Shown piece by piece: positions 8,731-46,214 of a DNA stretch of 64,000 bases (positions within the stretch are counted from its first letter, which is position 1; every line of letters begins with the position of its first letter). Source of the stretch: an uncultured archaeon (lineage in GTDB: Archaea; Aenigmatarchaeota; Aenigmatarchaeia; CG10238-14); assembly GCA_964392445.1 (NCBI GenBank), contig CAYMPD010000001.1, forward strand, positions 32,001 through 96,000, in the 5' to 3' direction. The notes beneath the pieces were generated by a model. It saw nothing but the letters and a program-made list of their open reading frames with translations. It was not told the DNA's origin and did no database searches. Made by a program: the position numbers and the translations under genes.

Positions 8731-8840
8731 GGGCCCGTAGCTCAGCCTGGTTAGACCCTTTTTGGGGACTGAAGCGCTTGTCTTATAAGGCAACTGAGCG
8801 TAAAAGCAAGTGGTCCTGGGTTCAAATCCCAGCGGGCCCA
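8731..8840 (+). tRNA. tRNA-Ile(TAT) with two introns (about 8755-8772 in the D-arm and 8788-8804 at 37/38)
   Basis: Acceptor GGGCCCG/CGGGCCC+A; D-stem GCTC/GAGC after intron removal; anticodon stem CTTGT/GCAAG with loop CT-TAT-AA; T-arm CTGGG-TTCAAAT-CCCAG. Confidence 0.85.
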
Positions 8841-9748: not shown

Positions 9749-10993
9749 TTAATTTGGAGTGGTCAAAACTACATCAACTATATCTTCTTGTAAAGGTCGG
9801 GTAAGATTTCTTGTATTGGTTCCAAAATCAACTGATGCATTTATCTCCGCAACATAAAAAGACATATTTTCTCTAAGATAAGTACTAATTCTTCTTTGAA
9901 GTTCTTTATATTCTTCACTTGACCTATATTCTCCAAAAATCCTATCGAGATTTGCTAGGTCTCCCTCAAATTTTTCATCATATAAAATACCCAATAAATC
10001 AGTACCAAATCTCTCTACACGTGAATCTAATGTCGCCCTCATCTTATCTTTAGCCCCTTCAATCTCTGAATCCTTATAATCCGATACTCCTCTCACAACT
10101 TCATAAATTCCTCTTCTGACCTCTAAATCGTCACAAACAGGTATTATATCCACTCCTACTATTAAAGGACCTTGATCATTTTCTATATAGGAAAGCATTG
10201 CTCTTACAGAACTTAAGGATATGTCCTCTACTATTTGTGGAGAATCTATGCCGCCCACAGGAATTGCTCCAAGTGCTGTATTTTTAGCTTCCTCTTCATC
10301 ACTTCTACCAACTCTAGCCAGACACCCTAAATATTCAGGTTTTCTCCCCCTTTTCATAGAAACTAGACATCTTAAATCAAGTGGATGAGGTAAAAATTCT
10401 TCAAGAAAAAGTCCCCCCGGATTTATACTATTTCTATAGAATGCACTAGGGACTTCTCCTCTTGGTTTACCCCGCTGAGAACTACAAAAATCAATGAAGT
10501 CTTCTTTTCCGTTTACTTTAATTATAGATTTTCCTCTGCTCCCAGAAGTCGGTTTTACTGCTACCGGAAAACCTAACTCTTCCTGTATAGAATCTGCTAT
10601 TTCTTCTATATTTTCTTCATTTCCTCTAATTGTTCCACCAACAATTTTCAAAGGATGTTTTGTTAAGTGATAAGGAGCAGTTGGTATTTCTTGATCCTTA
10701 AATACTTCTTTCATGGCCGGTTTATATCTACAAAACCCTTCCACCGAATAAGAACTTAAAACTGTTATTCCAGACTCTTCCAACTCTTGAGCGAAATTAA
10801 CTCTTCCTCTCCTATGCACCAATCTATTCACGACTTTATCTAGATCTTCTAGAAACTCTTTCTCTATTCCCGTTCTATGAGAATAATGCATTATAGTAGG
10901 TATAACTCCCCTATTTAGAAAAGCTTGGAGTATTAAAATTTCATCTACATAAAGTTCTGTATCAAGATAATCAACGGCAAGTCCTATTGTCAT
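9749..10993 (-). CDS. LysX/RimK-like ATP-grasp amide ligase with a long helical insertion
   Basis: 'VNRLVHRR', 'VAVKPTSGSRGK', 'LEEFLPHPLDLRCLV', 'KNTALGA', 'GVDII', 'AEINASVDF'. Confidence 0.75.
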   Translation of the reverse strand: MTIGLAVDYLDTELYVDEILILQAFLNRGVIPTIMHYSHRTGIEKEFLEDLDKVVNRLVHRRGRVNFAQELEESGITVLSSYSVEGFCRYKPAMKEVFKDQEIPTAPYHLTKHPLKIVGGTIRGNEENIEEIADSIQEELGFPVAVKPTSGSRGKSIIKVNGKEDFIDFCSSQRGKPRGEVPSAFYRNSINPGGLFLEEFLPHPLDLRCLVSMKRGRKPEYLGCLARVGRSDEEEAKNTALGAIPVGGIDSPQIVEDISLSSVRAMLSYIENDQGPLIVGVDIIPVCDDLEVRRGIYEVVRGVSDYKDSEIEGAKDKMRATLDSRVERFGTDLLGILYDEKFEGDLANLDRIFGEYRSSEEYKELQRRISTYLRENMSFYVAEINASVDFGTNTRNLTRPLQEDIVDVVLTTPN

Positions 10994-29351: not shown

Positions 29352-31454
29352 TTACTCATCCACAAATTCCACAGAGCAAGTACTAAGATTTTCCCCTATT
29401 TCTTTAGGTCCTAACACATAAACCATGAAATTTATCTCAGTTTCATAACTATACTTTCCCAAAGATTGTATCAATTTCCTCTTAACACGTTTTGAAGAAC
29501 AAACAAAAACTAAATCCCCATCAACTTTTTCCAAGTACTTATCAATATCATATCCAATAACCGATGTTTTGAATACAACCCTATTCCTCAAATCTTTCTT
29601 CTGGAAAACCAAATCATCTTTATCTTCAACTAATTCCCATCCTCTAGATCCATAATCCTCCTTAACCATCTCCTTCAAGTTCTCAACCGATTCCTCATCC
29701 TCTCTGTTAATTATCTCCCCATACTTTGAAATGTAAACCAACCTTCCCTTCTTAGTCAAAAAGTAGTAATAAGCATAATTTCTATGCAACTTGACCTTTT
29801 TCCGGTTTATTATACCCTTATCCATTAACTCCTCAGCCCTATTCCTAAAAGTAGTCCCAGAAACACCCAGTCTTCTCTGTATTTGAGAGCTAGATATCCC
29901 CTTTCCTGGAGCAAGAATTTTCAAAACATTCCAAAGAGACCTGTCCAAACTTTTAGCCATAGAAGCTATATCCTGTTTTTTGTGAAGCATATCTATAGCC
30001 TTTTCTGGGTCTTTTGGGATTTTAATATCCAATTCATCCTTCTTTTTCTCTTTATAGAGCTTTACTATCCTCTTTCCCATTATATCTCTAACTAAATCGT
30101 CTTTAATCACTGAATTATCAATTCTAAGAAGTGGAAACTTAACCAAGAAAGGATTTCTGAAATCCATTCTCCTGGCAACAATATAACCATGTCCTGTTGG
30201 TAACTTCCTAATATATTCTATTTCCTCATTTGTTTTTAAACCAAGCATGTGTGATGCATCCATAATATCTGAAGAGGATTTAGTATCCAAACCCAGATTC
30301 ATGTAAATATGAGTACTAGTATTACCCAAAGCAGGATAACTTATCAAAGAAGGGTGCTGATCTAAATAAACCAAACCTACTCCTAACTCACGAACCTCAC
30401 GAAATATAAGATCAACCACACCTTCCATTCCCGACCTAATCGTCTTCTCCCTATTCAGAATATTATGAGCTTCTTCAATGATTATTACACCATTCAATTC
30501 GTTCCTCTTATCACTTACAAGCAACCAATCTCTTATCCACTGGAGCATTATTTCAATCATAAAAGTCTTGTCAGCGGTCGCAAGAGGGTCCAGTTCCAGA
30601 ATCGTTATCTTTCCTTTTTCAAAGAATTTATCTGGAGTTATACCTTCTTCTGTATCAAATATATGTCCAACCTCACGAAATGTCAATGATTCCAATGGTC
30701 TTTGTGCGGTTGCAATCCAGTTTTTCTCTCTTGATGTCTTAGTTGATTTCAATGCTTCTTCAACACCTTTTTTCAGGTCTTTGATCTTTGGATATCCAGC
30801 TCCATCATCATAAACCTTATCCAGGGCTTTAAGTATAACGTGCCTACCTCCACCCAGCAACCAATAGGCGTGATCGAATATCTCTGCAAATTCCTTAGCC
30901 CATTGAGAAATTGGTATATTTTCAGGAGGTTTTAATGGATTGAATCTGAAGGGTGATACACTTCTACCAACCGTGTAAATACTAACTTTGTCTTTTAACT
31001 CAGGATCTTTTAACAAATTCCTATAGTTTCTCTTTGAGAAGTCGAATATTAGAACCGGGATATCTTTCTCCGATAGTTTTTTCGTGAGCGATCTCGCCAG
31101 ATTAGTTTTACCAGAACCCGAAGAACCAAATATTCCTATATGTGTCAAAAAATCTTCCTCGCTGAGCATTAGTGGATACAAACCTTGTTTATCATAAAGT
31201 ACCGTTCCTAATTCCACGTTTCCTTTTAATGCAGCATGTTCTGAAGGAGGTTCCATAACTGGTATATTTTCAAATCTATCCTCTGAGAAAACTGCAGCCT
31301 TGATTGCGTCTATGGTTTCCTGGATTCTTTGTCTTGTTAATTCATCTCCGAGAAGATAAGCTGCTCTGATTTTTTTTGTGGACTTTTTCCCAACTATAGG
31401 TGCTAGTCTATTGATATCATCAACTATCAATTCTTCATCAGTCCTGTAAACCAT
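29352..31454 (-). CDS. HerA/VirB4-like (DUF87) ATPase with C-terminal winged-helix region
   Basis: 'HIGIFGSSGSGKT', 'LIFD', 'IIIEEAHN', 'REVRELGVGLVYLDQHPS', HTH 'ISSSQIQRRLGVSGTTFRNRAEELMDKG'. Confidence 0.85.
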   Translation of the reverse strand: MVYRTDEELIVDDINRLAPIVGKKSTKKIRAAYLLGDELTRQRIQETIDAIKAAVFSEDRFENIPVMEPPSEHAALKGNVELGTVLYDKQGLYPLMLSEEDFLTHIGIFGSSGSGKTNLARSLTKKLSEKDIPVLIFDFSKRNYRNLLKDPELKDKVSIYTVGRSVSPFRFNPLKPPENIPISQWAKEFAEIFDHAYWLLGGGRHVILKALDKVYDDGAGYPKIKDLKKGVEEALKSTKTSREKNWIATAQRPLESLTFREVGHIFDTEEGITPDKFFEKGKITILELDPLATADKTFMIEIMLQWIRDWLLVSDKRNELNGVIIIEEAHNILNREKTIRSGMEGVVDLIFREVRELGVGLVYLDQHPSLISYPALGNTSTHIYMNLGLDTKSSSDIMDASHMLGLKTNEEIEYIRKLPTGHGYIVARRMDFRNPFLVKFPLLRIDNSVIKDDLVRDIMGKRIVKLYKEKKKDELDIKIPKDPEKAIDMLHKKQDIASMAKSLDRSLWNVLKILAPGKGISSSQIQRRLGVSGTTFRNRAEELMDKGIINRKKVKLHRNYAYYYFLTKKGRLVYISKYGEIINREDEESVENLKEMVKEDYGSRGWELVEDKDDLVFQKKDLRNRVVFKTSVIGYDIDKYLEKVDGDLVFVCSSKRVKRKLIQSLGKYSYETEINFMVYVLGPKEIGENLSTCSVEFVDE

Positions 31455-31998
31455 CTTCTCTCAACTCCTCGAATAATTCAGCTACTTTACTCTCTATAGC
31501 CAACTGTTCTTCTAATTGGTGAAGCTCTCTTTGGACTTCAAGTCTATCCTTCCAGAACAAAAGATTCTCTCTTCTCCTTTCCATCTTAAGATTAGTTAGA
31601 TCTAATTGTAAGTCTCGGATTCTTTCAGGATCATTCAAAGTTTTTATTTGACTTTCTTTTTCATCAATGTCTTGTGTTATTTCAGCTATTGAGTTTTTAT
31701 TAATGGTTTGTCTTGCTTGAGCTGCTAATTTCAAATCAGATACTCTAATCTCTAAGAACTTGACTCTTTCAAAAATATTACCTATTAATTCCCCACCAAG
31801 TAATCTTAATGACCTCAGTCTTTCTTCCTTTATTTTTTGCCATCTTTTTTCTTGTTTTGTAACTACTTCTCTAACTATCCTTTCTCTTTCTTCGTACAAT
31901 TCTTGTCTTTCAAAACCTGGCGAAAGTCTCTCATCCTCTTCGTAAGGTCTTCTATCTCTAGGCGTTATATAAGGTGCACGTGGTACTCCGTCTTTCAT
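31438..31998 (-). CDS. Coiled-coil protein overlapping the ATPase start
   Basis: Long Glu/Arg/Leu heptads; 17-nt overlap with the ATPase gene. Confidence 0.75.
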   Translation of the reverse strand: MKDGVPRAPYITPRDRRPYEEDERLSPGFERQELYEERERIVREVVTKQEKRWQKIKEERLRSLRLLGGELIGNIFERVKFLEIRVSDLKLAAQARQTINKNSIAEITQDIDEKESQIKTLNDPERIRDLQLDLTNLKMERRRENLLFWKDRLEVQRELHQLEEQLAIESKVAELFEELREDGLQD

Positions 31999-32116
31999 CC
32001 AAATCCCATCTGTCTTAATATGTCTTACATGGATGGTAAGATTTAAATACCTATCGGTAGTGACAGATTGCTCGATATAAAATTTATTAGGATTATTAAG
32101 ACCTATAATCAGTCTT

Positions 32117-32518
32117 TTACCATCTCTTTAACTTTACTTTTTCCTTTTTACAGAATTTCTCATAATGTTTATCATTACTTAGAATATCATGACAATTCAT
32201 GTGTTTCGCGGTTGAAGCAATTATAGAATCTATCAACGGTATTCCAAAAGTATGTGATATTTTACCGGCTTCTATGGTTATTTCATTTGTGGTCTGCACT
32301 ATTTCTATCTTTGGCTTAACTTTTAACCCATTCACAAAAGATTCAACTTTCTTTATAATTTTACCTTTTTTCAAGTAATTCCTAGTATATTCGCCTAAAA
32401 CAATGGAAGGGATTATTAAATGATCTTTACCAGATACCGACTTCCTTAATATATTTAATGCCTTTTCATCCTTATCTGAAAGTAGTAGTAAAAACCAAGT
32501 ATCGGCACAATGTCTCAT
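32117..32518 (-). CDS. vapC: PIN-domain toxin (VapC)
   Basis: 'ADTWF', 'SIVLGE', 'DSIIASTA', 'SNDKHY'. Confidence 0.9.
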   Translation of the reverse strand: MRHCADTWFLLLLSDKDEKALNILRKSVSGKDHLIIPSIVLGEYTRNYLKKGKIIKKVESFVNGLKVKPKIEIVQTTNEITIEAGKISHTFGIPLIDSIIASTAKHMNCHDILSNDKHYEKFCKKEKVKLKRW

Positions 32519-32760
32519 CTCTCAGATTCCTCTCTTTCTTCTTGTATTCTCTTCCAGTCTTTCTTACCTAAACCTGAAGATGAAAAAAAGTCCACAATAT
32601 CTCTGAAATCTGGTTCTCGTGTTATTTTATCTACAAATATCATACTAGGCACGTAACTAACTTTAACCATGTCCATTGGACATATCCCCTCTTTTTCTCT
32701 AATCGATTTGGGTATTGTTATCTGCCCTTTTTGATTGACTTTAACTATTTTATTTAACAT
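32515..32760 (-). CDS. vapB: AbrB/MazE-type antitoxin (VapB)
   Basis: 'KVNQKGQITIPKSIREKEGI'; 4-nt overlap with vapC. Confidence 0.88.
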   Translation of the reverse strand: MLNKIVKVNQKGQITIPKSIREKEGICPMDMVKVSYVPSMIFVDKITREPDFRDIVDFFSSSGLGKKDWKRIQEEREESER

Positions 32761-35312: not shown

Positions 35313-35577
35313 GCTAATAATTGAAAATGTTCCCTTATATAATTTTCTATCTAATATAAAATTTTTTAATATGTTATATCCTAATGTAAAATACATTAAC
35401 TCCCTAAATCCCTAAAAAGTCGATTTTGAAGTCCTATTAGGAGTCCATATCTTTTAACCACTTTAAAGTAGCATTCAATTTAGCCCGTACCCCACTCTAT
35501 CTCACACTCACTTTCAATCCGTGAGAGTTGTTCTATATTATATATTTTTTAAAACATATTTTACTTCTATCATATTT

Positions 35578-35603: not shown

Positions 35604-35702
35604 CTGATTATAGTTTAAGTTAACTTATTTTAAAATCTATATATTTTGATTAAACCGCCTGAACATATAAATACTTGGGAAAACTAATAATTATTGGATT
35701 GT

Positions 35703-36002
35703 ATGGCGGTAAAAGAAACTGAATTAACAAAGCTCTTCTTAAGGACTAAGCCTGTTAGAATGCTAATTGCTTTGAAGAAAGGTCCCAAATATTGTACCCA
35801 AATTTCAAAGGAAATAGACTGTACCTATTCTCATACAATAAAACTTTTGGACGAGTTGGAAACATTGAATCTAGTCACATTCAAAAAACAAGGAAGGATC
35901 AAAATTGTCAACCTAACAGAAAACGGCGAAGATCTTGCACATTCTATTGAAGGTACATTGATGAAATTGGCTAGAATCCGAGAGCAAAATAAGGAAGAGT
36001 GA
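35703..36002 (+). CDS. Winged-helix (MarR-like) DNA-binding protein
   Basis: 'KYCTQISKEIDCTYSHTIKLLDELETLNLVTFKKQGRIKIVNLTENG'. Confidence 0.85.
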   Translation: MAVKETELTKLFLRTKPVRMLIALKKGPKYCTQISKEIDCTYSHTIKLLDELETLNLVTFKKQGRIKIVNLTENGEDLAHSIEGTLMKLARIREQNKEE

Positions 36003-36740: not shown

Positions 36741-37094
36741 GTGCAAATTAAAACTTGGGTGATAAATAAAATAGACTATGATGAGTTTGACTGGAATGAC
36801 TTTATGGATACATTATTTCCAGGGAAAAAGGAGAAAACTAGAGAAGCTGCAAGTAAAATTTTGAAATATTTGAAAGAAAACCCAGCGACATTAAATGAAA
36901 TTATTAAAAATAAGAATTTAGTTAGAGGGACAGCTTATAACGCATTTGACTATCTTAGAAAATCTGGACTTATATACAGAAAAGATAAGTATTCGAAAAT
37001 AATAATCTCTGAGCAATTTGGAAGGGCACTTGAAAGGCTTGCTAAGTACTGGTATTTGTGGTGTAGAGGAGTTAAAGAAAAAAGAACTAGATAA
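36741..37094 (+). CDS. Winged-helix DNA-binding protein
   Basis: GTG 36741 after a strong SD GAGGTGAT; 'ILKYLKENPATLNEII...RGTAYNAFDYLRKSGLI'. Confidence 0.8.
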   Translation: MQIKTWVINKIDYDEFDWNDFMDTLFPGKKEKTREAASKILKYLKENPATLNEIIKNKNLVRGTAYNAFDYLRKSGLIYRKDKYSKIIISEQFGRALERLAKYWYLWCRGVKEKRTR

Positions 37095-37256: not shown

Positions 37257-37282
37257 AAAATATGTTTTATTTTATATAATAA
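37257..37282. repeat. Right arm of the 26-bp inverted repeat
   Basis: AAAATATGTTTTATTTTATATAATAA. Confidence 0.6.
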
Positions 37283-37387
37283 GTATTCACACACAAAAGT
37301 GAGAGTTAAATTTTGGAAAGTAGAAATAAGTTTTAGTCGGAAAACACGAGGAGAAGGGTTATAAGCACATAAAATCTTAATTTAGTT

Positions 37388-37813
37388 ATGAAAATTCCTG
37401 AAAGTGTTGGCTGGGATAGAATAAACGAAGGATTGAAAAAACTAGATGTAGTTGGGATAAACCATTTCAGTCTTGGGTTACCTAAGGAAAGTGAGGGAAC
37501 AAATCCTGAAAAGGTAGAACTTTTCTTCGAGGAAATGGGAAAAATTATTGGAATAGAGAATCCTAAAGAGGTGAAATCGACTGAGTGGTTCATCTACCCT
37601 GATGGTAAAACTCCAGGATATGAGCATCTACTTTGGCCTGGTAAAAAAGTTTTTTATCATATTGAAATCGATGTTAAGGATTCTAATGAAAGAATAATGG
37701 AGGTTTTTCCTGAAGCATTTGAAGAAAGGCCCGGAATGTTTTGGTTAACAGTAGATAAGGGTTTCTTGGGAATACTGTGGGCGGTCATTATAACTAACAA
37801 GAGAGAAAAGTGA
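37388..37813 (+). CDS. Hypothetical protein
   Basis: 141-aa ORF with host-like composition. Confidence 0.7.
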   Translation: MKIPESVGWDRINEGLKKLDVVGINHFSLGLPKESEGTNPEKVELFFEEMGKIIGIENPKEVKSTEWFIYPDGKTPGYEHLLWPGKKVFYHIEIDVKDSNERIMEVFPEAFEERPGMFWLTVDKGFLGILWAVIITNKREK

Positions 37814-37817
37814 GGGT

Positions 37818-38195
37818 ATGAAGCTAATAAACAAGACCAAAAATAAAGTAATCGCAACAAAAATAATAGTAAGGAAGAGCAGGATAGGGTTAATGTTAGG
37901 ACTGATCCCATACAAAACCAAAAACGAATACATCTACGATTATTTGAAGTTCAAAAAGTTCGGTAGAAAAGATGCTATGCTATTCAAAGTGAGAGGTAAA
38001 GGTGGGATTCATACATGGTTTATGAGTTTTCCGATAAGTGTTTTCTTCCTGGATAAGGATATGAAAGTAATTGATAAGGTTCAACTATATCCTTTTGAGA
38101 GATATAAACCAAAGAAAAGATATGAGTGTTTTGTTGAATTGGATGGTTCCTGGATAAATAAGATAAGGATTGGAGAGGAATTAGAACTAAAGTGA
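37818..38195 (+). CDS. DUF192 family protein
   Basis: 'GLMLGL', 'AMLF', 'IHTWFMSFPISVFFLD', 'FVEL'. Confidence 0.85.
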   Translation: MKLINKTKNKVIATKIIVRKSRIGLMLGLIPYKTKNEYIYDYLKFKKFGRKDAMLFKVRGKGGIHTWFMSFPISVFFLDKDMKVIDKVQLYPFERYKPKKRYECFVELDGSWINKIRIGEELELK

Positions 38196-38198
38196 GAG

Positions 38199-38417
38199 TT
38201 AATCCTTCAAACTTGGGAATCCTTCTAGGTTCTTTATATCGTAAATTTCGATTAGTTTTTTTCTGCCTTCCTTTGTTTTCGATAATTCCTTGTAAACTCT
38301 TTGGTGGTTTTGGAAAAGTGAGTTAATGAATTGGGTGTGAATCTTTCTCCACTTATCTGGGTTATTTCTAACAAATTCTGCCCATCTTTCTATTTGATCT
38401 TGATGTGTTTCCCTCAT
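38199..38417 (-). CDS. Small helical protein coupled to the nucleotidyltransferase-like gene
   Basis: 72 aa; 4-nt overlap with 38414..38971. Confidence 0.7.
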   Translation of the reverse strand: MRETHQDQIERWAEFVRNNPDKWRKIHTQFINSLFQNHQRVYKELSKTKEGRKKLIEIYDIKNLEGFPSLKD

Positions 38418-38971
38418 AATCTCAACTTCTTAATCATTTGTTTGATCTTTTTTACTTCTTCTTCTTTTACTTTATCCTTGTATACCCTCCTCAAATACTC
38501 GGCGTCTTCCAAGTCTTTGGGGGATTTTAATAAGTCTTCCTTAAAGGCTATATTCATGTTAATGGAACTAAACCATACATCTAAACCAGTTAAAGGTAAT
38601 TTTTCTTTTGTTTCGAATTGATAGTTATCAAGTTCATCCTTCGCGAATTTAAGTTCAATTTCGGGTAAAGGGTTATCTTCACGGGCATACCTCACAGGGA
38701 TATTACTATCCAAATAATCATAAATTTCTTCTAAATCAGGGCTTTGTATACAAGTAAATCCTTCTTCTACTAAATCTTTGTGTAATTTCTTAAAATTCTC
38801 ATAGCCCATTCTCCGTATTATTATGTCTATATCTTCTGTTCCCCGAGTTCTACCTGAGGCTATCACAACAAACCCAGACACTACTATGTACTCTACATGC
38901 TCCTCAAGTATTTCACAAAAATCGGAACAAAACTCATTCAATACATTCTTATCTGATATCTGCCTTTCCAT
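38414..38971 (-). CDS. Nucleotidyltransferase-fold protein
   Basis: 'YIVVSGFVVIASGRTRGTEDIDII' and C-terminal 'KDLED'. Confidence 0.75.
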   Translation of the reverse strand: MERQISDKNVLNEFCSDFCEILEEHVEYIVVSGFVVIASGRTRGTEDIDIIIRRMGYENFKKLHKDLVEEGFTCIQSPDLEEIYDYLDSNIPVRYAREDNPLPEIELKFAKDELDNYQFETKEKLPLTGLDVWFSSINMNIAFKEDLLKSPKDLEDAEYLRRVYKDKVKEEEVKKIKQMIKKLRL

Positions 38972-39015
38972 GATTATTACTAGAATTCCAGAAATTTATT
39001 CTTGAAAAGTGAGAG

Positions 39016-39642
39016 TTATTTCACTACTTTAACACTCTTAATTACAACATCTTCAGCAGGAACATTCCCGTACATACCTACATTGTGAGTTTTTACCTTA
39101 GCTATAGAATCAACAACGTCCATACCTTCAATCACTTTACCAAAAACAGCATAACCATAAGGATCATTACCTCCTGGATTAAGAAAATCATTATCAACTA
39201 GGTTAATGAAAAACTGGGAAGTTGCGGAATCAGGGTTGTTTGTCCTTGCCATTGCTATAGTGCCTCTTTCATTTGTTAGTCCACTGTCCTTGGCTTCGTT
39301 CTTGATAGTTGAGTATTTCGTTTCTTTTTCAGTCATTCCAGGTTCAAATCCTCCGCCCTGTATCATAAATCCATCTATCACTCTGTGAAAGATTAGTCCA
39401 TCATAAAACCTATTCTCGACATACTTGAGGAAATTCTCGGTTGTTTTAGGTGCTCTTTGTCCATCTAACTCCAAAACGATTGTCCCCTTATTCGTTACCA
39501 TCTCGACATTGACCATACCCGAAACTTTGTTGTTAGAAATATTAATTAGTTTGTAACCGAAAAATGTAAGAACCACCAAAATTGTTATTAAACCTAGTAT
39601 CAAATATTTTCTCTCTATCTGAATTTCCACTGACATGAACAA
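39016..39642 (-). CDS. Cyclophilin-type peptidyl-prolyl isomerase with N-terminal membrane anchor
   Basis: 'APKTTENF', '[13 protein letters not shown]', 'GTIAMART', 'SATSQFFIN', 'YAVFGKV'. Confidence 0.96.
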
Positions 39643-39676
39643 TATTTGAAAAATAGATTATTATTTTTTACCGAAA

Positions 39677-39778
39677 GTGAGAGTTAAACTAACAATTTTA
39701 GATTTAATTATTGCCTCTATAGGTCTTATTTTATTAGGACTAGGATATATAGACCAATGTAATTGTGTGAGTATTTGA
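39677..39778 (+). CDS. Putative 33-aa single-TM peptide starting inside the 13-mer motif
   Basis: GTG start; MRVKLTILDLIIASIGLILLGLGYIDQCNCVSI. Confidence 0.4.
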   Translation: MRVKLTILDLIIASIGLILLGLGYIDQCNCVSI

Positions 39779-39896
39779 TCAGGTGATAGACTGAAGGAAC
39801 CCAGATAGATTCCTTTTCAGGTCCCTGAAAAGGGGATTTATATAGTTTCATCACCACCAAAATGCTTAATTTAGAGGTCATGTATATATTTCTTGT

Positions 39897-40778
39897 ATGA
39901 AAATTGTTATTTTAGGCTCCCCAGAAAGGAGAAAAAAAGACTTAGAACTCCTGAAAGACGCAAAAGGGGTTTTTGATAAAGCTTTATATGTTTCAATAGA
40001 TTCCGTTAAGTTGGAGGTATCAGACGAAATGAAAGTATCCTTCGAAAAGACTGATCTTTCAGATTTCGACGTAATTCTCCCTGTGCCCACATATGAACAC
40101 AAAGAAACCTATTATATGTGTCTGAAAATTCTTGAAAAAAGTTGTTATGTTCCATACAAGAGCGATGATTTCTTTTTACTCTGGAACAAACCACTTTTAA
40201 TAAAGAAACTTCAAGAGAGTGATATTAACGTGAGGAAAACAGTTGTAGTCGCATCTAATTATATACCCGAAAATGCTGTAAAAGAATTGAAATTGCCTAT
40301 CATTGTTAATTCATATAAGGGGAAAGTTTTGGTCACCGACAAAAATACCCTTAAGGATGTTATGGATTTATTTAAAAAAGGTATAATGAATAGACTTGAG
40401 AAGCCTATATCGGCTAATAAGAGTATCTGGTGCTTTATTGTCGGTGACGAAGTTATTGGTTGTTATGAAAAAGTAGGTGATGAGAGAAAAAGAATGACTA
40501 AAGCCAGTTCGGATATTACTAAATTATCTAAAAGGATAAAATCCATTGTCAATACTGATTTCTGCATAATTAATTTCCTAGAAACTAAAGACAAAATAAT
40601 CGTAAAAAATATTAGTGTGACACCAGATTTCCCGTTGTTTGAAAAAATCACAGGTAAAAACCTAGGCTTGAGTTTACTAATTTATGTTAAAAGCCAGATT
40701 GAAGAAGAAAAACTTCCTTTTATAACGAAATTCATAATAGACGTTATGGATTTATTGAAAAGGTTGGTGAAACAATGA
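39897..40778 (+). CDS. Degenerate RimK-like ATP-grasp protein (probable pseudoenzyme)
   Basis: Paralogous to the downstream gene ('DLSDFD.ILP', 'NK'); lacks the GSxG loop and the ExN motif. Confidence 0.7.
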   Translation: MKIVILGSPERRKKDLELLKDAKGVFDKALYVSIDSVKLEVSDEMKVSFEKTDLSDFDVILPVPTYEHKETYYMCLKILEKSCYVPYKSDDFFLLWNKPLLIKKLQESDINVRKTVVVASNYIPENAVKELKLPIIVNSYKGKVLVTDKNTLKDVMDLFKKGIMNRLEKPISANKSIWCFIVGDEVIGCYEKVGDERKRMTKASSDITKLSKRIKSIVNTDFCIINFLETKDKIIVKNISVTPDFPLFEKITGKNLGLSLLIYVKSQIEEEKLPFITKFIIDVMDLLKRLVKQ

Positions 40779-41641
40779 AAATAGCGATATTGGGTAAAGT
40801 AAAAAGGAGTTACGAAGAAATAAAGATCATAAAAGAAGCGAAGAAAGTTTTTAACTCTGTTTTATATTTACCTATACCAGAAGCGAGGATAGAGATAAAT
40901 TCCGACTTCAGTGTTAAATTTAAGAACGAAGATTTGTCGGACTTTGACTGTATATTACCAAGGATTCCCCGAAGTTATAGGACATATGGATTCACGTTAT
41001 TGTCAGCTCTTAAAGGCAAAACATTTGTGCCAATAGAGCCAATGTCCTTGTTCAACTGTCATAATAAATTCCTAACCCTCATGATACTGAATGAAGAGGG
41101 TTTACCTGTACCTAAAACATTACTATCCGAAAAGAGAAAAATCATCGAGGATTCCTTGGATGAAATAGGTTATCCAGTTGTAATGAAACTTCTCTACGGT
41201 TCCATGGGGAAAGGTGTAATGTTTGCAGACGGCAAACAATCTGCTATAAGTTTCATGGACACACTTGAAAGATTCGACGAACCAATTTTCGTCGAGGAAT
41301 TTGTTCCAAATAATGGAGAGGATATTAGAATTTACATGGTAGATCATGAACCCATTGCTTGTATGAAGAGAGTGGCAAAAGAAGGGGAAAAAAGGTCTAA
41401 TATTGGGATTGGGGGAAAAGGGGAAAAGTACATATTGCCTGAAAAATACGAAGATCTGGTCCACAGTGCATCCAAGTCACTTGAAGCCAGGATTTGTGGC
41501 TTGGATTTGATGGAATCCAAGAAAGGACCCGTTTTTATTGAAGCTAATATCAACGCCCAATTCAAGGGACTAGAAGAAGCTACCAAAATCAACGTTGCAA
41601 AAATTATAATAGAATTTATGAAGAGCTGTGTGAAAGAGTGA
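40775..41641 (+). CDS. rimK: RimK family alpha-L-glutamate ligase
   Basis: 'NKFLTL..L...GLPVPKT', 'PVVMKLLYGSMGKGV', 'EEFVPNNGEDIR', 'RSNIGIGG', 'GLDLM', 'EANINAQF'. Confidence 0.9.
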   Translation: MKIAILGKVKRSYEEIKIIKEAKKVFNSVLYLPIPEARIEINSDFSVKFKNEDLSDFDCILPRIPRSYRTYGFTLLSALKGKTFVPIEPMSLFNCHNKFLTLMILNEEGLPVPKTLLSEKRKIIEDSLDEIGYPVVMKLLYGSMGKGVMFADGKQSAISFMDTLERFDEPIFVEEFVPNNGEDIRIYMVDHEPIACMKRVAKEGEKRSNIGIGGKGEKYILPEKYEDLVHSASKSLEARICGLDLMESKKGPVFIEANINAQFKGLEEATKINVAKIIIEFMKSCVKE

Positions 41642-41645
41642 AAGA

Positions 41646-42482
41646 ATGGATTTTCTTAGATTTAGTGACTTAAAATCAATGGATAGTTTTCTAGAGGAGA
41701 TTAGTGTCAAAAGAGAAGACAAAATGGAGTATTACAAATTTAGCAAGTTCGAGGAGAACAGAATTCTTTTTACAGCCGAGCACAGCAAAATCGTGAAATT
41801 TCAGACCTCTAAATTCCCAAGACCCAATTGTATCGAATTAGGTGATAGAAATACTGACAAAATCGCTAAACTGATGTCCTACAAACTTAAATCTGGGTAT
41901 CTTATTTTCGGGTACCCGAGAACGGAAGTTGATGCATCAAGATCTTTCAGAACTTTGGGTGGAGATGAAAAAATAAAGGCTGCAGTTACAAGAAAAAAAG
42001 AATTATTAGGAAAAGTGGATGTAAAGATACACCAAAATGAGAAATATTTGTCAAACCTTCAGAAATACCATTCTATAGTTGAAAAATCGAACCCTAAGAT
42101 AATAGCGTCCATCCATGGTATACAGAGGAGACACAAAAATGATGTAGTTTTTGGGTTAGGTGAGAATTCTGAGTATGTGGGTGGGGCGAAGGAAGAGAAA
42201 AGGTTAATGAATATACTCGAAAAAAATCTTGAAGAAAATGGTCAATCAGACTTGAAATTCAGAGTTTCAAAAAAATATTATACTGGTAAAAGGAATTTTG
42301 TTTTACATCGAAATATCCTCGAGTTCAATAGAAGTAATCCAGAAAAAAGGTACGGCATGCAGATAGAATTTAATAGGAGAACCAGAGTGGGAGATAAATC
42401 CAAAGAGTTCATAAAAAAGAAATATCAAATTGTATGTCAAATAATAGCGGATTCAATTTTAGAGTGGGGAAAACCTAAATGA
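41646..42482 (+). CDS. N-formylglutamate amidohydrolase / poly-gamma-glutamate hydrolase-like Zn-exopeptidase-fold protein
   Basis: 'LFTAEH', 'GDRNT', 'RTEVDASR', 'ASIHG', 'MQIEF' motif series. Confidence 0.5.
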   Translation: MDFLRFSDLKSMDSFLEEISVKREDKMEYYKFSKFEENRILFTAEHSKIVKFQTSKFPRPNCIELGDRNTDKIAKLMSYKLKSGYLIFGYPRTEVDASRSFRTLGGDEKIKAAVTRKKELLGKVDVKIHQNEKYLSNLQKYHSIVEKSNPKIIASIHGIQRRHKNDVVFGLGENSEYVGGAKEEKRLMNILEKNLEENGQSDLKFRVSKKYYTGKRNFVLHRNILEFNRSNPEKRYGMQIEFNRRTRVGDKSKEFIKKKYQIVCQIIADSILEWGKPK

Positions 42483-42667
42483 GTCGATCCAAATAGATTC
42501 CTATTCAGGTAAGGGACCCAAAGAAGCCTAGATGCTCAGAAATGATGGGATTATTTCAATGGAGGGTGTGAAAAAGTATTATGATAAAAAACCATGAGTA
42601 TCAAAAAAGTGAGAGTTAAATACAAAAAATTTAACTGATAAAACCAAATTAATTCAGAGGTGAGTTC

Positions 42668-43264
42668 ATGGGAGATGTATGGCAAAGGACATTATTTATG
42701 GTTAAACCTGATGGTGTTAAAAGAGGGTTAGTGGGAGAGTGTTTTAGAAGAGCAGAGAACGCTGGATTAAGTGTTATAGCAATGAAAATGATCCATCCAA
42801 CAAGAGAACAGGCGGATAGACATTATCCAAGTGAGGAAGATGATAAAGACTGGTTCCTAAAGGTAGCCGAGAAAGGAAGAAAAGGATACGAGAAAAGAGG
42901 TTTAGAATTTCCTTACGATGATATGGAATATGCCAGAAACATCAAAAAATGGTTAGTTGATTACTTATCTTCTGGTCCTGTTGTTGCTTCGGTTTTAGAA
43001 GGTCCAAATGCGATTAGTATGGTTAGGAAGATTTGTGGAGCAACGGAGCCTGCTCAAGCGGAAATAGGTACAATAAGGGGAGATTTCTCGGTTGATAGTT
43101 ACAAACTGGCAAATAAACTAGAAAGACCACTCAAGAACATAGTTCATGCAGCATCCAGTCCTAAAGACGCGGAGAAAGAGATTAAAGTTTGGTTTAGTGA
43201 AGATGAAATAATGGAATATAAGAGAGCGGAAGAAGGTGTGATGTTCGATCCAATCGAAAAGTGA
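42668..43264 (+). CDS. ndk: Nucleoside diphosphate kinase
   Basis: 'RTLFMVKPDGVKRGLVGE', 'GTIRGDF', 'NIVHAASS'. Confidence 0.96.
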   Translation: MGDVWQRTLFMVKPDGVKRGLVGECFRRAENAGLSVIAMKMIHPTREQADRHYPSEEDDKDWFLKVAEKGRKGYEKRGLEFPYDDMEYARNIKKWLVDYLSSGPVVASVLEGPNAISMVRKICGATEPAQAEIGTIRGDFSVDSYKLANKLERPLKNIVHAASSPKDAEKEIKVWFSEDEIMEYKRAEEGVMFDPIEK

Positions 43265-43274
43265 GACTTCACAG

Positions 43275-44195
43275 GGTAAAATCCTCGTCACTAGTTACAA
43301 AAATCCAGACTTAGACGGAACTGCATGTATGGTTGGTTATTCTGAATTGCTTAGAAAGAAAGGTGAGGATGCTAGTCCAGGTTATTTTGGAAATCTTCAA
43401 AGGGAGACTAAGTATCTTCTTAAGAAATTCCGTATCTCTAGACCTAAGAAGGGTGAGGATCTAATCGAAAAGTGTGATAAGGTTGTAGTAGTTGACAATG
43501 TTAACCCCATTGGTTTATCGGAAAAAATAGACCTTGAAAAGGTCGTGGAAGTTATCGATCACCATTATTCTGAAAAGAGACTTTTGAAAGAATATCCTAA
43601 TGCTAAAGGGGAGATAGAAGAGGTTGGAGCGGCAGCAACATTAATAGTTGAAAAGTATATGGAATCTGAAATACCGATCGACAGAGATCCTGCAATCTTG
43701 CTTTACAGTGGCATTATTTCCAATACCTTGAATTTCCAATCAAATACAACAACTGAAAGGGATAAGAAAGCTGCGAAATGGTTGAGAAAGTTAATTGATA
43801 TCCCTAAAACTTTTGCAAGAGATATGTTCGCCTCGAAATCGGATCTAAGTGATAAGAAAATTTATGATGTGTTAACTGGTGATTTGAAAGAACTGAAAGA
43901 TGATTCTCTTTATATTGCACAACTAGAGATAATTGATTTAGAAAAAACAGTGAGAGAAGGGAAAGAGGAAATAACCAAAGCGCTCAAGACGATTAAAAAA
44001 GAAAAAAGTGGAAAATATGTCTTCCTAACGGGAATGGATCTCGAGAAAGGATTCAATCTCTTTTTGGTAGTGGATGATAAAAGTAAGGAACTTCTTGAGA
44101 AAGCTCTAAATGTTAAATTTGTTAATAATATAGCCAGGCGAGAAGGATTAATCATGAGAAAGGAAATAATACCAATAATTGAAAAATACTTGTGA
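43275..44195 (+). CDS. ppaC: DHH-family (Mn-dependent) inorganic pyrophosphatase; N-terminus lacks a canonical start codon
   Basis: In-frame GKILVTSYKNPDLDG upstream of the track start at 43329; 'VVVVD', 'IDHH', 'GAAAT', 'GIISNTLNF', 'RK.IIP'. Confidence 0.85.
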   Translation, partial: GKILVTSYKNPDLDGTACMVGYSELLRKKGEDASPGYFGNLQRETKYLLKKFRISRPKKGEDLIEKCDKVVVVDNVNPIGLSEKIDLEKVVEVIDHHYSEKRLLKEYPNAKGEIEEVGAAATLIVEKYMESEIPIDRDPAILLYSGIISNTLNFQSNTTTERDKKAAKWLRKLIDIPKTFARDMFASKSDLSDKKIYDVLTGDLKELKDDSLYIAQLEIIDLEKTVREGKEEITKALKTIKKEKSGKYVFLTGMDLEKGFNLFLVVDDKSKELLEKALNVKFVNNIARREGLIMRKEIIPIIEKYL

Positions 44196-44198
44196 AAA

Positions 44199-44684
44199 GT
44201 GAGAGTTATGAAACCAGGTAAAGACTTCATTGGCTTAGGAGTAGGAGCAATAATACAAAACGAAAAGGACCAAGTCCTACTTCTTAAAAGACCAGATACA
44301 ATAACCCCTGATAGAACAACATCTGGAATGTGGTCAGTTCCTGGGGGTGAAGTTAAGTTTATGGAAAAAGTTGAAGATGCACTCAAACGAGAAGTGAGAG
44401 AAGAGATAGGAGTGGAAGTTGAAATAATTAAACCTATAGAATATCATGATCAGATACTAGATGAATCCCAAGTACACTGGCATTGTCAATCATTTCTTTG
44501 CAAAATTAAAGAGGGTAAACCTGAAATACATGAACCAAGTAAATGTGAGGATTTGAAGTGGTTTGATACTGATATTCTCCCCGAGAAGTGTGGTATAGCC
44601 CATATTGTTGTTCCTCTGTACAAGCTTGGCTGGATTAGTAAGAGTGAGTATGAAAGGAGATTAAGAAACACCCCCGAGAGTTGA
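44199..44684 (+). CDS. NUDIX hydrolase (start GTG 44199 or ATG 44208)
   Basis: Nudix box 'PGGEVKFMEKVEDALKREVREEIG'. Confidence 0.93.
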   Translation: MRVMKPGKDFIGLGVGAIIQNEKDQVLLLKRPDTITPDRTTSGMWSVPGGEVKFMEKVEDALKREVREEIGVEVEIIKPIEYHDQILDESQVHWHCQSFLCKIKEGKPEIHEPSKCEDLKWFDTDILPEKCGIAHIVVPLYKLGWISKSEYERRLRNTPES

Positions 44685-45223
44685 TTAGTATGGATATAGA
44701 AATTTTCAAGAAAAATAAAAAGTCTCTCCTAGTCATGGGAATTGGTATTATAATAGGGATGATCGGGCTTTTTCTGTTCCCAACTTTTCTAATCTTTACT
44801 ATTTTTCTTGTAGGTACTGGAATCTTAAACTTCGTACAGAGTAGGATGGAACTTCCATTTGACCTGACACCCTCCTTAGCTATCTTGATTCTCTTCTCGA
44901 TAAAATTAGGATTTCTTGAGGGGATGATATTTCTGATATTGGGTTCTATAATACCCGGGATACTGGGAGGGGGATTTAATCACATGACTTTATTTTTCTT
45001 CCTTTTAGCTATGGGTATAAGTTATCTGGGATCATCATCTTTAATTGGGGACTTGAGAATCTATGGTATTGTCCTTATTGTGATTCAAGGCGTCTTTAGT
45101 TATCTAATCATAAAGCTCTTTTCGGTTGATCCTACGGATATTTTATCTGTTTTTCTAGGGTTCTTTGTAAACATTAGTTATTTTTTAGTTTTAAGTGAGT
45201 TAATAGCGAGCGTATTGGTTTGA
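44681..45223 (+). CDS. Multi-TM membrane protein
   Basis: About six hydrophobic segments. Confidence 0.75.
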   Translation: MISMDIEIFKKNKKSLLVMGIGIIIGMIGLFLFPTFLIFTIFLVGTGILNFVQSRMELPFDLTPSLAILILFSIKLGFLEGMIFLILGSIIPGILGGGFNHMTLFFFLLAMGISYLGSSSLIGDLRIYGIVLIVIQGVFSYLIIKLFSVDPTDILSVFLGFFVNISYFLVLSELIASVLV

Positions 45224-45260
45224 ATGATACTTATTTCTTTATTTTCCTAAAAAGTGAGAC

Positions 45261-45446
45261 ATGAGTTATTGGTATTGTTTGGATTGCAGAAAAGTCGTGG
45301 ATACTTATATGGATATTTTCAAAGCTTTCTCGCTTTGCTGTAAAGAGTGTGGGAGTACTAGGTTGTTGAAATTGAATAAGATGGATGAGAAAGAGTTTGA
45401 TAAATTTGTTGAAGAATTCAAAAGGAAGACTGGGGAGGTTGAGTGA
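45261..45446 (+). CDS. Small zinc-ribbon protein
   Basis: 'YCLDCR...CCKECGSTRL'. Confidence 0.7.
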   Translation: MSYWYCLDCRKVVDTYMDIFKAFSLCCKECGSTRLLKLNKMDEKEFDKFVEEFKRKTGEVE

Positions 45447-45447
45447 A

Positions 45448-45852
45448 GTGAAGGTTTATGTTGCGTCTAGATTTAATAATCAGCAAAAAGTCAAAGAAAT
45501 TTATAGGGAACTGATTGAAAATGGGTTTGAAATAACTGTTGATTGGACCAAACATAAAAAAGTGAAGCCTTATGAAAAGAATCCTAAAATGTCTGAGAAA
45601 TATTCAAAGGAAGATATCGAGGGGGTAAAAGATTCTGATATTTTAATTTTGTTGACTACTGAAAACCCTGGTAAAGGCATGTTTGTAGAAATGGGGGCTG
45701 CTATAATAGTAAATATACTTACAGGAAAACCAAAGATTTACATAATTGGAGATTATAATAAACAATCCCTATTTTACTTTCATCCGAACGTTAAGCGCCT
45801 AAACACGATAGAAGATGTTATTGAAGACTTGAAGAAAAGTGAGGTTTCATGA
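45448..45852 (+). CDS. Nucleoside 2-deoxyribosyltransferase-like protein
   Basis: GTG 45448 gives MKVYVASRF; 'DIEGVKDSDILI', 'GKGMFVEMGAA'. Confidence 0.8.
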   Translation: MKVYVASRFNNQQKVKEIYRELIENGFEITVDWTKHKKVKPYEKNPKMSEKYSKEDIEGVKDSDILILLTTENPGKGMFVEMGAAIIVNILTGKPKIYIIGDYNKQSLFYFHPNVKRLNTIEDVIEDLKKSEVS

Positions 45853-46214
45853 CCAAAGAAATGACCTTAAAAGAACTCCAAAAGGTTCAGAAAGAGTTCG
45901 ATGAAAAATACTTTAGTAAATACTGGATTGATAAGGAAGATATAGATCAGAAGATTAACTTTCTCAAAGACATGGCCATAGCCTTAACAGGAGAATTAGG
46001 TGAATTCGCAAACATCATCAAAAAAGTGAGTAGGGACAGAAAGAATCTTGGTAAAGAACCTAATAAGGAAAATATCCAGAAACTCAAGGAGGAATTGACG
46101 GATTGTTTTATTTACCTTATAATCCTATCCAACATACTCGAAATGGACATAGAAAAACAGTATCTAAAGAAGACAAATCTAAATCACAAAAGATTTCAGA
46201 AGTACTTAAAATAG
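45849..46214 (+). CDS. MazG-like NTP pyrophosphohydrolase
   Basis: 'LTGELGEFANIIKK', 'EELTDCFIYL'. Confidence 0.9.
   Translation: MTKEMTLKELQKVQKEFDEKYFSKYWIDKEDIDQKINFLKDMAIALTGELGEFANIIKKVSRDRKNLGKEPNKENIQKLKEELTDCFIYLIILSNILEMDIEKQYLKKTNLNHKRFQKYLK

Follow-up and report, generated by a model that had tools for sequence, protein, structure and literature searches.

What does a 13-base word do that recurs, on one strand, at the boundaries of small genes in an archaeal chromosome? The question arises in a 1.2-Mb Aenigmarchaeota (DPANN) MAG, of which a stretch of 64 kb (the window) was analyzed. The genomes of DPANN archaea are tiny, and little is understood of how genes enter and leave them. 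At this locus, one defined site in the chromosome, small genes appear to be exchanged among close relatives at a 13-base joint, and that joint is linked to one small DNA-binding protein.

The word, AAAGTGAGAGTTA, has six exact copies on the + strand, starting at 37296, 38189, 39006, 39674, 42606 and 44196 and spanning 37296–44208, and none on the − strand of the window. Chance would yield 0.01 copies per window, as the original prediction of far less than one per 64 kb had implied, and six copies were reached in 0 of 100 shuffles. A genome-wide map by strand returned the same six copies as the total for the 1,215,121-bp assembly (94.9% complete), clustered in one locus and all +. Three of them continue as GTTAAAY, as first described. 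The degenerate variants proposed at 37807, 43258, 45251 and 45836 are confirmed and have AAAGTGAG in common. Three more copies were found, one inside the DUF192 gene (37986), one on the − strand (35502–35514) and a + strand core (35521–35529). Spacing is irregular, 0.4–2.9 kb, and tracks gene lengths, and the 9-mer core of the motif is not enriched outside the array locus anywhere in the genome.

This distribution bears on two general readings. Being polar and lying beside winged-helix genes, the copies might form a chromosome-scale signal of the parS, KOPS or Ter kind, as had been suggested, or origin iterons. We consider this extremely improbable, as the motif is missing from the rest of the genome with all exact copies within 7 kb, each genome has one 1–9 kb array whose irregular spacing is set by gene lengths, and the word is non-palindromic. 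Absence outside the locus refutes a KOPS- or Ter-like signal, and parS-like sites fail on the same map. No partition (ParA/ParB-type) or replication gene adjoins the array. It is also highly improbable that the motif amounts to nothing more than a common Shine-Dalgarno or translation-initiation variant. The core is Shine-Dalgarno-like and degenerate copies stand directly before ATGs; however, six exact 13-mers occur in 7 kb against none in the other 1.2 Mb, all 13 of 13 positions are conserved where about five could pair with rRNA, and copies lie distant from starts or beside − genes. The 16S tail is GGATCACCTCCTTT, and pairing is therefore possible for GTGA or GAG only; the Shine-Dalgarno site of this genome is AGGTGA at −12 to −6. 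A general Shine-Dalgarno site was thus rejected on the scant 16S pairing and on a 13-mer and 9-mer core that are unenriched outside the locus. Rather than being spread evenly through the genome like a Shine-Dalgarno variant, the six exact copies are confined to one locus, in agreement with the claim that the motif is not just such a site. Six copies in one locus and a core unenriched elsewhere therefore point to a locus-specific factor, not to the ribosome or the general transcription machinery.

Comparison with 33 non-redundant related loci from genomes and metagenomes places the array between a conserved winged-helix pair and TrxR/GDH/NAD-kinase genes in one Aenigmarchaeota family. The motif is restricted to a single 1–9 kb array per genome and is repeated 5–10 times per array in one orientation, mostly off recognizable promoters. 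Strand polarity is nearly complete, with 140 copies + and 2 − in the 33 arrays; a reversed-word control over the same arrays gave 4 copies. Junctions hold 74 of the 91 copies with at most one mismatch (81%, against a 20% background). All 13 positions are conserved across relatives, and the exact 13-mer is retained across genera and families, even in a 47% G+C relative carrying GAAGTGAGRGTT. Across the contexts of 45 internal copies the flanks were not conserved and no TATA stood at a constant spacing; a suitably placed TATA box accompanies the first copy and a few internal copies only. The motif is a strand-polar, locus-specific junction element of a flexible gene array.

The gene most closely linked to the motif is wHTH2 (36741–37094, +), encoding an ArsR/MarR/PadR-like winged-helix protein whose presence tracks the arrays. 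Its start was set by alignment, the frame staying open upstream through a decayed endonuclease remnant, and its modeled likeness to ArsR, MarR and PadR regulators is generic only. A motif copy starts 212–243 nt past the wHTH2 stop in 31 of 33 loci, and in G008 a divergent wHTH2 homologue occupies the same position with the motif spacing unchanged. Sister genus g4 lacks both wHTH2 and the motif and keeps fam15, NDK, ATP-grasp and ThiF as one collinear 7.2-kb block at 70% identity; neither wHTH2 nor the motif was found in genus g10. The 31/33 spacing and the co-absence with wHTH2 in g4 and g10 uphold the proposed tie to the adjacent winged-helix module and, with a TATA box 17 nt before copy 1, are features of an operator.

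That box, TTTATATA (37271–37278, +), precedes the array-proximal copy 1 (37296–37308, +, exact) and predicts a transcription start near G4–G6 of the motif; at least 8 genomes have a TATA box at −25 to −18 relative to the first copy. In the conserved leader that follows copy 1, a degenerate second copy lies about 21 nt farther along, and another TATA-like box is present. Farther upstream lies wHTH1 (35694–36002, +), a small winged-helix protein with weak Pfam matches, whose closest solved relative is AF_1382. It is near-universal and mostly single-copy, being present in 103 of 118 genomes of the order. In the promoter region that wHTH1 shares divergently with the − strand LTD gene, a motif variant, AAAGTGAGTGTGA (35502–35514, −), lies upstream of LTD, about 21 nt past a TATA-like box, and is kept as GAAGTGAGTTTGA or TTTGTGAGTTTTG in two same-genus genomes. 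With the + strand core GTGAGAGTT (35521–35529) it forms an inverted repeat, CTCAC-N9-GTGAG. The order of TATA box, then motif, is comparable at this LTD promoter.

The reading we favor, tentatively and with slightly less than even confidence, is that the motif is a locus-specific site of a protein, probably wHTH2, with its direct repeats serving as joints between cassettes. A protein encoded at the array head, most probably wHTH2, would recognize the 13-mer. Copy 1, on the transcription start of the array promoter, would have a repressor-type placement, through which binding may affect expression, and further copies would mark nearly every cassette boundary. Because they are identical direct repeats, the copies could also serve as gene-exchange joints, and recombination between them, within the motif itself, would replace, delete and reorder genes. 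Neighboring genes would have been packed tightly against a word that is under constraint, taking from it TGA, TTA (read as TAA on the opposite strand), GTG and the Shine-Dalgarno-like AGTGAG.

Archaeal repressors classically act at the transcription start, and operators that overlap it (MDR1, Phr, TrmB family) are usually palindromic and few. The locus shares with them a first copy downstream of TATA and on the predicted start, a small winged-helix gene adjoining the site, and an inverted core pair in the regulator's own promoter region. It differs in having a non-palindromic word in 5–10 co-oriented repeats, mostly off recognizable promoters. A resemblance to T4-type phage promoter repeats that shuffle modules is also proposed. 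Several points weigh against a wHTH2 site. The fold is that of dimeric regulators, usually binders of palindromes, whereas the word is non-palindromic; internal copies, with unconserved flanks and no constantly spaced TATA box, would have a less evident part in regulation; copies at convergent junctions and before − genes lack an obvious promoter; perfect identity across many copies is unusual for operators; and operators do not demand strict co-orientation. Against motif-mediated exchange, 13 bases are short for homologous recombination, and selection against intragenic breaks alone would put surviving breakpoints in tiny spacers.

The cassettes show how closely genes and motif are interlocked. 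The first, u141 (37388–37813, +), belongs to no family and was seen solely in this genome among those compared. It is terminated by the TGA of a degenerate junction copy, AAAGTGAGGGTAT (37807–37819, +), next to which is the ATG of the DUF192 gene (37818–38195, +), which is mostly the first gene of the array and contains a 1-mismatch copy in frame (37986–37998, +). Copy 2 (38189–38201, +) occupies a convergent junction, its TGA (38193–38195) ending DUF192 and its TTA (38199–38201) being the stop of a 72-aa gene. The latter is part of a two-gene cassette (72 aa and 185 aa; 38199–38971, −) that G001 and G003 have in common with differing neighbors; the 72-aa gene is real, since substitutions peak at the − strand wobble position. 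Copy 3 (39006–39018, +) likewise supplies, with its TTA (39016–39018), the stop of an accessory cyclophilin (PPIase) cassette (39016–39642, −), which was not found in four related genomes and occupies another array position in G001 and G012. The stop codons that the original prediction had assigned to the motif, TGA at 38193 and TAA at 38199 and 39016, are therefore correct. Its two GTG starts fared differently. The one at 39677, in copy 4 (39674–39686, +), opens a conserved 33-codon hydrophobic ORF, a small membrane peptide (39677–39778, +), with 90% nucleotide identity to same-genus G001; the one at 44199 is probably not the NUDIX start, which we place at ATG 44208 because the GTG is out of frame in a relative.

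Beyond copy 4, a block of RimK-like, RimK and 278-aa genes (39897–42482, +) is present in this genome alone among those compared, and no motif was found between its genes. Copy 5 (42606–42618, +) lies 49 nt before the start of NDK (42668–43264, +), the most constant array member, which has its own Shine-Dalgarno site, GAGGTGA, and ends on the TGA of the next copy. In that junction copy, AAAGTGAGACTTC (43258–43270, +), the reading frame of the DHH/DHHA2 phosphoesterase gene runs through; the gene is placed at 43329–44195 (+) from its first ATG, and a conserved N-terminal segment lies upstream of that ATG (43263–43328). Copy 6 (44196–44208, +) directly adjoins the DHH stop and ends on the A of the NUDIX ATG. 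NUDIX and a 180-aa gene (44208–45223, +) are followed by degenerate copy AAAGTGAGACATG (45251–45263, +), which holds the ribosome-binding site and ATG of a 61-aa zinc-ribbon gene, and by AAAGTGAGGTTTC (45836–45848, +), directly before the ATG of a MazG/dUTPase-like gene (45849–46214).

Genes between copies are replaced, lost or permuted among close relatives, and homology breaks often fall exactly on motif edges. In G012 and G016, whose flanks are 91% identical, the stretch between two copies is the PPIase unit in one and unrelated DNA in the other. G000 and G001 have the PPIase and two-gene units in opposite order, NUDIX occupies the first array position in G002, and one NUDIX indel begins at the motif 3′ end. 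Comparison of gene order between motifs thus revealed motif-bounded units that are gained, lost, replaced and reordered, which lends support to the original prediction; co-oriented sites separating units of varying content and order are a feature of integrons and CALINs. The functions carried are mixed: nucleotide house-cleaning enzymes, a prolyl isomerase and membrane proteins. In close relatives L103 and L110, some indels lie off motifs.

A further explanation is that an undescribed archaeal system captures genes by site-specific recombination, with the motif as its dedicated site. The layout would be integron-like, with a platform, a promoter, a first site and a co-oriented site after each cassette; the core would be 13 bp with the crossover at G10/T11 (AAAGTGAGAG|TTA), and the recombinase would either have its gene elsewhere or belong to a new kind. 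Co-orientation, 140 against 2, would be a requirement of excision and insertion chemistry, and on either side of swapped units homology stops exactly where the motif begins or ends. Neighboring units have changed order and NUDIX has moved, the PPIase cassette is accessory among cassettes of mixed function, and a GAG|TTA crossover would keep the TGA of + genes and the TTA stops of − genes inside their own cassettes. The promoter stands directly before the first site, like Pc before attI, the copies are identical, as in recombination cores, and two tyrosine recombinases and two Y1 transposases are encoded elsewhere in the genome. However, the window has no recombinase gene and none is linked to the arrays, and inverted binding arms and a hairpin are absent. 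The arrays carry housekeeping genes such as NDK, and much gene order is inherited vertically at normal divergence. The first gene varies at the conserved leader after copy 1 and not at copy 1, the tandem degenerate copies before a wHTH gene in other families resemble binding sites rather than cassettes, and no copy cluster was found on viral contigs. We therefore regard a dedicated recombination site as unlikely.

The flexible array is integron-like, yet without known integron parts. Like integrons and CALINs, it has a conserved platform whose promoter immediately precedes the first site, small and mostly promoter-poor genes in a row, split by co-oriented copies of one site, and content and order that vary among close relatives with breaks at sites, some cassettes being reversed. 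The motif ending GTTA(AAY) is reminiscent of the integron G|TTRRRY core. In contrast, no IntI adjoins the array, arrays keep a constant position in the chromosome and include housekeeping genes (NDK), the products of the platform are two small winged-helix proteins, and the motif is a bare 12–13-mer whose flanks are not conserved. The attC site, an imperfect hairpin of 57–141 bp with R″/L″/L′/R′ boxes, is absent from the motif array. A Pfam scan of ORFs at 28.7–51.9 kb found no IntI, and both PF00589 matches of the genome are on contigs C32 and C7. CALINs also lack IntI, so its absence alone does not exclude integron or CALIN membership. The pairing RYYYAAC-N30–130-GTTRRRY occurs twice in 9.5 kb (window average about 1) and at none of the motifs, and DNA folds of both strands at all six copies gave z from −1.3 to +1.5. 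Merely 12–35 nt separate some − gene starts from the next motif copy. Since the junctions show neither an attC-like hairpin nor RYYYAAC...GTTRRRY pairing, and the window lacks an integrase, the integron relationship raised in the original prediction does not hold. Classical attC sites are known in some Aenigmatarchaeota (Ghaly et al. 2022, PMC9668308), and the motif array would therefore be a separate thing.

There is some chance, though a small one, that the locus is an integron-like capture platform using a bare core, AAAGTGAGAG|TTA, and winged-helix-assisted recognition, without attC hairpins or an integron integrase. On that reading, single-gene cassettes would enter, leave and change order behind a fixed promoter. 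If the recombination reading were true, the problem solved by integrons would have a second and unrelated answer here; passive regulator site or true recombination site, the locus offers a testable model of genome plasticity in uncultured archaea.

Phage PeSLs (promoter-stem-loops), about 50–70 bp long, combine a promoter and a hairpin. These regulatory cassettes of T4-type phages reportedly mediate modular gene shuffling, a finding attributed to Arbiol et al. 2010. Common to both systems are a short repeated expression signal flanking small variable genes in a hyperplastic region and, presumably, a repeat doubling as recombination substrate that moves modules. The present repeat differs in being 13 nt, without a hairpin, with the promoter box at the first copy only and in a cellular archaeal host. 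A promoter and stem-loop at each repeat were not found, TATA boxes occurring at the first and a few internal copies and hairpins at none.

The polarity of the motif, which agrees with the direction of most array genes, could also reflect an RNA-level signal, in which the motif would act as 5′ leader and intercistronic linker of one long + transcript. Such a linker would comprise a stop overlap, the Shine-Dalgarno-like AGTGAG, a spacer and a start, read by the ribosome or a specific RNA-binding regulator, and gene shuffling would be a by-product. Internal copies would then need no promoter, and the first copy lies at the predicted transcript 5′ end. AGTGA and GTGAG are mildly enriched before starts genome-wide, and for a start at position 13 the motif GTGA occupies −9 to −6, where a Shine-Dalgarno site normally sits. 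NUDIX, the zinc-ribbon gene, MazG, DUF192, the small peptide and vapC of G037 start directly after or inside the motif, and the 1-mismatch copy before the ribosomal protein S13 ATG on another contig would suit the same role. The 16S 3′ end, however, is standard and limits pairing to 4–5 bases, and the core is not enriched outside the array locus. NDK and DHH have their own Shine-Dalgarno sites, with the motif 41–56 nt upstream of the NDK start or within DHH codons 2–5, and a + start lies 8–16 nt from the motif start in only 4 of 74 well-matching junction copies. Exact copies stand at convergent junctions or before − genes, with no + cistron following, and genus g4 has the same genes with no motif. 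Neither a conserved RNA fold nor an Rfam match nor complementarity to rRNA emerged; Rfam returned three tRNAs only in the window, and RNAalifold found no consensus structure in 12 aligned leaders. An RNA-level signal thus seems doubtful, and we retain a site of a local protein, probably wHTH2, as the preferred reading.

Motif-like words also appear in other settings. On another contig, a copy with one mismatch stands before the ATG of ribosomal protein S13. In other families, tandem degenerate copies 26–130 nt apart lie before a wHTH gene, and the order of TATA box, then motif, recurs at promoters of another wHTH gene, with tandem GTGAGA repeats.

The 13-mer AAAGTGAGAGTTA occurs six times in the window without mismatch, always on the + strand (37296, 38189, 39006, 39674, 42606 and 44196, numbered 1–6 from the wHTH2 side), as originally predicted; 0.01 copies are expected per window. 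These six are the only exact copies on either strand of the whole assembly (1.215 Mb, 94.9% complete), of which the window covers C1:32001–96000. The four further variants of the original prediction were also recovered and share AAAGTGAG. Three additional sites were found: a copy with one mismatch within DUF192 (37986), a variant on the − strand (35502–35514) and the core GTGAGAGTT on the + strand (35521–35529). The flanks of the copies are unrelated to each other, both in the window and across 45 distinct internal contexts, indicating that the unit is the bare 12–13-mer. Outside the array, the only motif-like site in a promoter or leader position of this genome is a one-mismatch copy, AATGTGAGAGTTAC, on the − strand of contig C6 (~43674), directly 5′ of the ribosomal protein S13 ATG and just past a tRNA gene.

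The head of the locus is composed of a tRNase-Z-like metallo-beta-lactamase gene and an LTD-domain gene (both −), the small winged-helix gene wHTH1 (35694–36002, +), a decayed endonuclease remnant and a second winged-helix gene, wHTH2 (36741–37094, +). The array follows with a 141-aa orphan, DUF192, a two-gene unit (−), a cyclophilin (−), a 33-codon membrane peptide, a block of RimK-like, RimK and 278-aa genes, NDK, a DHH/DHHA2 phosphoesterase, NUDIX with a 180-aa gene, a zinc ribbon, a nucleoside-deoxyribosyltransferase-like gene and a MazG/dUTPase-like gene. TrxR, GDH and NAD kinase form the right flank, here and in relatives. Upstream of this platform, the − strand carries a run of three genes (29355–32521): a HerA/DUF87-type ATPase (702 aa, C-terminal winged helix), a 229-aa gene and a PIN-domain gene. 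An archaeal 16S gene and an intron-bearing tRNA identify the organism as an archaeon; its named relatives are Candidatus Aenigmatarchaeota MAGs, and the G+C content of the assembly is 34%. Genetic code tables 4 and 25 gained little ORF length, and table 11 was kept. A 110-nt tRNA gene at 8731–8840, matched by Rfam and missed by ARAGORN, presumably carries an intron.

Of 40 related genomes, 16 contain the exact 13-mer, again clustered and on one strand; the reversed word gave three hits. Homologues of wHTH2 were collected from eight loci in species-representative genomes, from strong matches in 11 genomes of family f1 and from 36 further loci in a metagenome scan. Of the 33 loci with sufficiently long sequence, 31 have a copy with at most two mismatches that starts 212–243 nt past the wHTH2 stop. 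In 33 non-redundant arrays, the 211 kb downstream of wHTH2 contain 140 copies on the + strand and 2 on the −; the reversed control yields 4. Gene junctions account for 25 of the 27 exact copies and for 49 of the 64 copies with one mismatch, against 20% of positions under the same junction definition. Even a relative of 47% G+C retains GAAGTGAGRGTT at the same places.

Genus g4 of the same order carries wHTH1 and lacks both wHTH2 and the motif. Its fam15–NDK–ATP-grasp–ThiF neighbourhood matches that of the motif-bearing genus g9, contains no copy with up to three mismatches in 10–12 kb, and aligns between two genomes as a single collinear block of 7.2 kb (70% identity). This natural control indicates that the array genes do not need the word, that the word goes with wHTH2 and, from one comparison, that plasticity accompanies it.

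The word must be read by a factor specific to this locus, for which wHTH2 is the obvious candidate from its linkage to and co-loss with the word. Its predicted model is a generic ArsR/MarR/PadR-type winged helix. wHTH1 is an unlikely specific partner, as 103 of the order's 118 genomes have it, motif-less ones included; it belongs to the core of Aenigmarchaeota as a small, uncharacterised DNA-binding protein. In those genomes it is usually single-copy with an invariant recognition helix (DCTYSHT.KLL), and its nearest solved relative is AF_1382. Complex prediction for wHTH1 with wHTH2 scored at the very bottom of the scale and was counted neither for nor against.

Gene boundaries are fitted closely to the word. 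Upstream + genes often stop at its TGA (AAAG-TGA-G) or directly before it, and in 8–9 cases a downstream − gene takes its stop from the last three bases, TTA. At 38189 the stops of the two converging genes lie 3 nt from each other, and the − gene is real, as substitutions across three genomes are highest at its wobble position. Some + genes begin at an ATG or GTG right after base 12, or at the GTG within the word (NUDIX, the zinc-ribbon gene, MazG, DUF192, the small peptide and a vapC), while the majority begin 17 to over 110 nt downstream with their own Shine–Dalgarno site. As a general start (MRV... proteins), the motif GTG was ruled out at 38192, by the periodicity of the − gene, and for NUDIX; it was kept as a start just for the 39677 peptide and in a few relatives. 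In G001 and G004, two same-genus genomes, the DHH gene starts 4 nt 5′ of the word and its frame runs through it, which accounts for position 13 being T or C at that junction. From this usage, including the DHH read-through, the word looks primary, with genes pressed against it.

Several small features accompany these junctions. The TTG start of DHH in G001 and G004 is TCG in the present genome, where, in the region 43242–43340, a conserved DHH/DHHA2 N-terminal segment (GKILVTSYKNPDLDGTAC) lies upstream of the first ATG (43329); the gene may thus lack a canonical start or be impaired. The 33-codon hydrophobic ORF from the GTG of copy 4 (MRVKLTILDLIIASIGLILLGLGY..., 39677–39778), 90% identical to G001 in DNA against a local 70–75%, is likely an unannotated small membrane protein. 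Tiny ORFs from the motif GTG after copy 1 (37299–37364, MRVKFWKVE..., MRVxFEK-like in relatives) and before NDK (42609–42638, MRVKYKKFN, MRVNYKNFN in G001) could be conserved nucleotides or leader peptides.

The blocks between copies vary among genomes of the same genus. The cyclophilin unit precedes the two-gene unit in G001 and follows it here; G001 is without the 141-aa orphan and the RimK block, NUDIX occupies the first array position in G002, and G003 and G004 differ further. Cyclophilin is genuinely accessory: its domain (PF00160) was not found in G003 (97% complete), G004, G016 or G019 and, where present, the gene lies inside the array only. The cassettes encode varied functions (SdpI, epimerase, alpha/beta hydrolase, DUF4405, methyltransferase, RidA, adenylate kinase), with nucleotide enzymes recurring. 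The small genomes G003, G004, G010, G016 and G019 carry very many NUDIX genes (8–15 PF00293 matches each).

Between relatives G012 and G016, whose flanks are 91% identical, a 615-nt cyclophilin unit is exchanged for an unrelated 468 nt; homology extends to the final base of the left copy and restarts with the first base of the right one. Another replacement between them starts at the 3′ end of a copy, as does a NUDIX indel between G012 and G019. Some indels lie away from the motif, for example between loci L103 and L110. The RimK–RimK–278-aa block, carried only by the present genome among those compared, is flanked by a 22-nt direct repeat (20/22 identical; 39801–39822 and 42489–42510), which hints at arrival by a route other than the 13-mer.

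A recombination joint is favoured by the strict polarity of the word, the perfect identity of its copies, their presence at convergent junctions and cassette edges that coincide exactly with the motif. A dedicated recombination system, crossing over at the GAG/TTA boundary (GAG|TTA), is an improbable form of it. No recombinase gene was found linked to the array. The two tyrosine recombinases (contigs C32 and C7) and two Y1 transposases of the genome are on other contigs, and a genome search for serine recombinases was negative. Contig C24 has, at 9318–10387, two identical hits to IS200/IS605-type Y1 transposases, 716 nt apart. The proposed likeness to integron sites was not borne out, attC search and hairpin folds being negative; archaeal integrons described so far have classical attC sites (PMC9668308). 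A KOPS-, Ter- or parS-like array was likewise dismissed, as the word is missing from the rest of the genome and the core is not enriched there. Viral contigs scanned with AAAAGTGAGAGTTA gave single hits per contig among the matches listed, as chance predicts, and the 12-mer had one match in full-text literature, an unrelated human paper.

In at least eight genomes, a strong TATA box lies at −25 to −18 of the first copy of the array, so that transcription is expected to start at ~G4–G6 of the word. Next come a conserved GTTnATTTTGAAAAA, a second, degenerate copy of the word ~21 nt away and, 25–30 nt before the first gene, another TATA-like box. Internal copies are mostly without TATA at that distance, and their 45 distinct contexts show no flank conservation at all, ruling out most of them as promoters of their own. 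An RNA-level linker or leader signal also appears unlikely. The leader after copy 1 has no consensus fold, Rfam returned tRNAs only, with no known RNA family matching the motif, and no rRNA pairing partner was found, the longest 16S run of 9 being typical of shuffled sequence. A general Shine–Dalgarno role was rejected: the 16S tail is standard, the site of this genome is AGGTGA, and outside the locus the core occurs about as often as chance predicts.

On the − strand, TATA followed by a motif variant lies upstream of the LTD gene; in this genus the − variant and the + core form CTCAC-N9-GTGAG in the wHTH1/LTD promoter region. Elsewhere in the order, other families have co-oriented word clusters, each with several GTGAGA(R)TT-like repeats 26–130 nt apart, ahead of a 210–260-aa coiled-coil protein with a C-terminal winged helix. 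A DNA-binding regulatory site is favoured by these tandem repeats before regulator genes and by the position of the first copy on the predicted start site. Taken together, our preferred though still tentative reading, put at a little under even chances, is that the word is a predicted protein-binding site whose direct repeats would serve as joints of cassette turnover. No homology was detected between wHTH2 and the coiled-coil protein. The latter (L039, L027, L042, L043 and L040) has an N-terminal amphipathic helix (MGFFDWLKRKL) and a Q/S-rich coiled coil before its winged helix. A small wHTH gene also precedes it beside the GTGAGA(R)TT clusters, and in G037 such a cluster also spans a vapBC pair.
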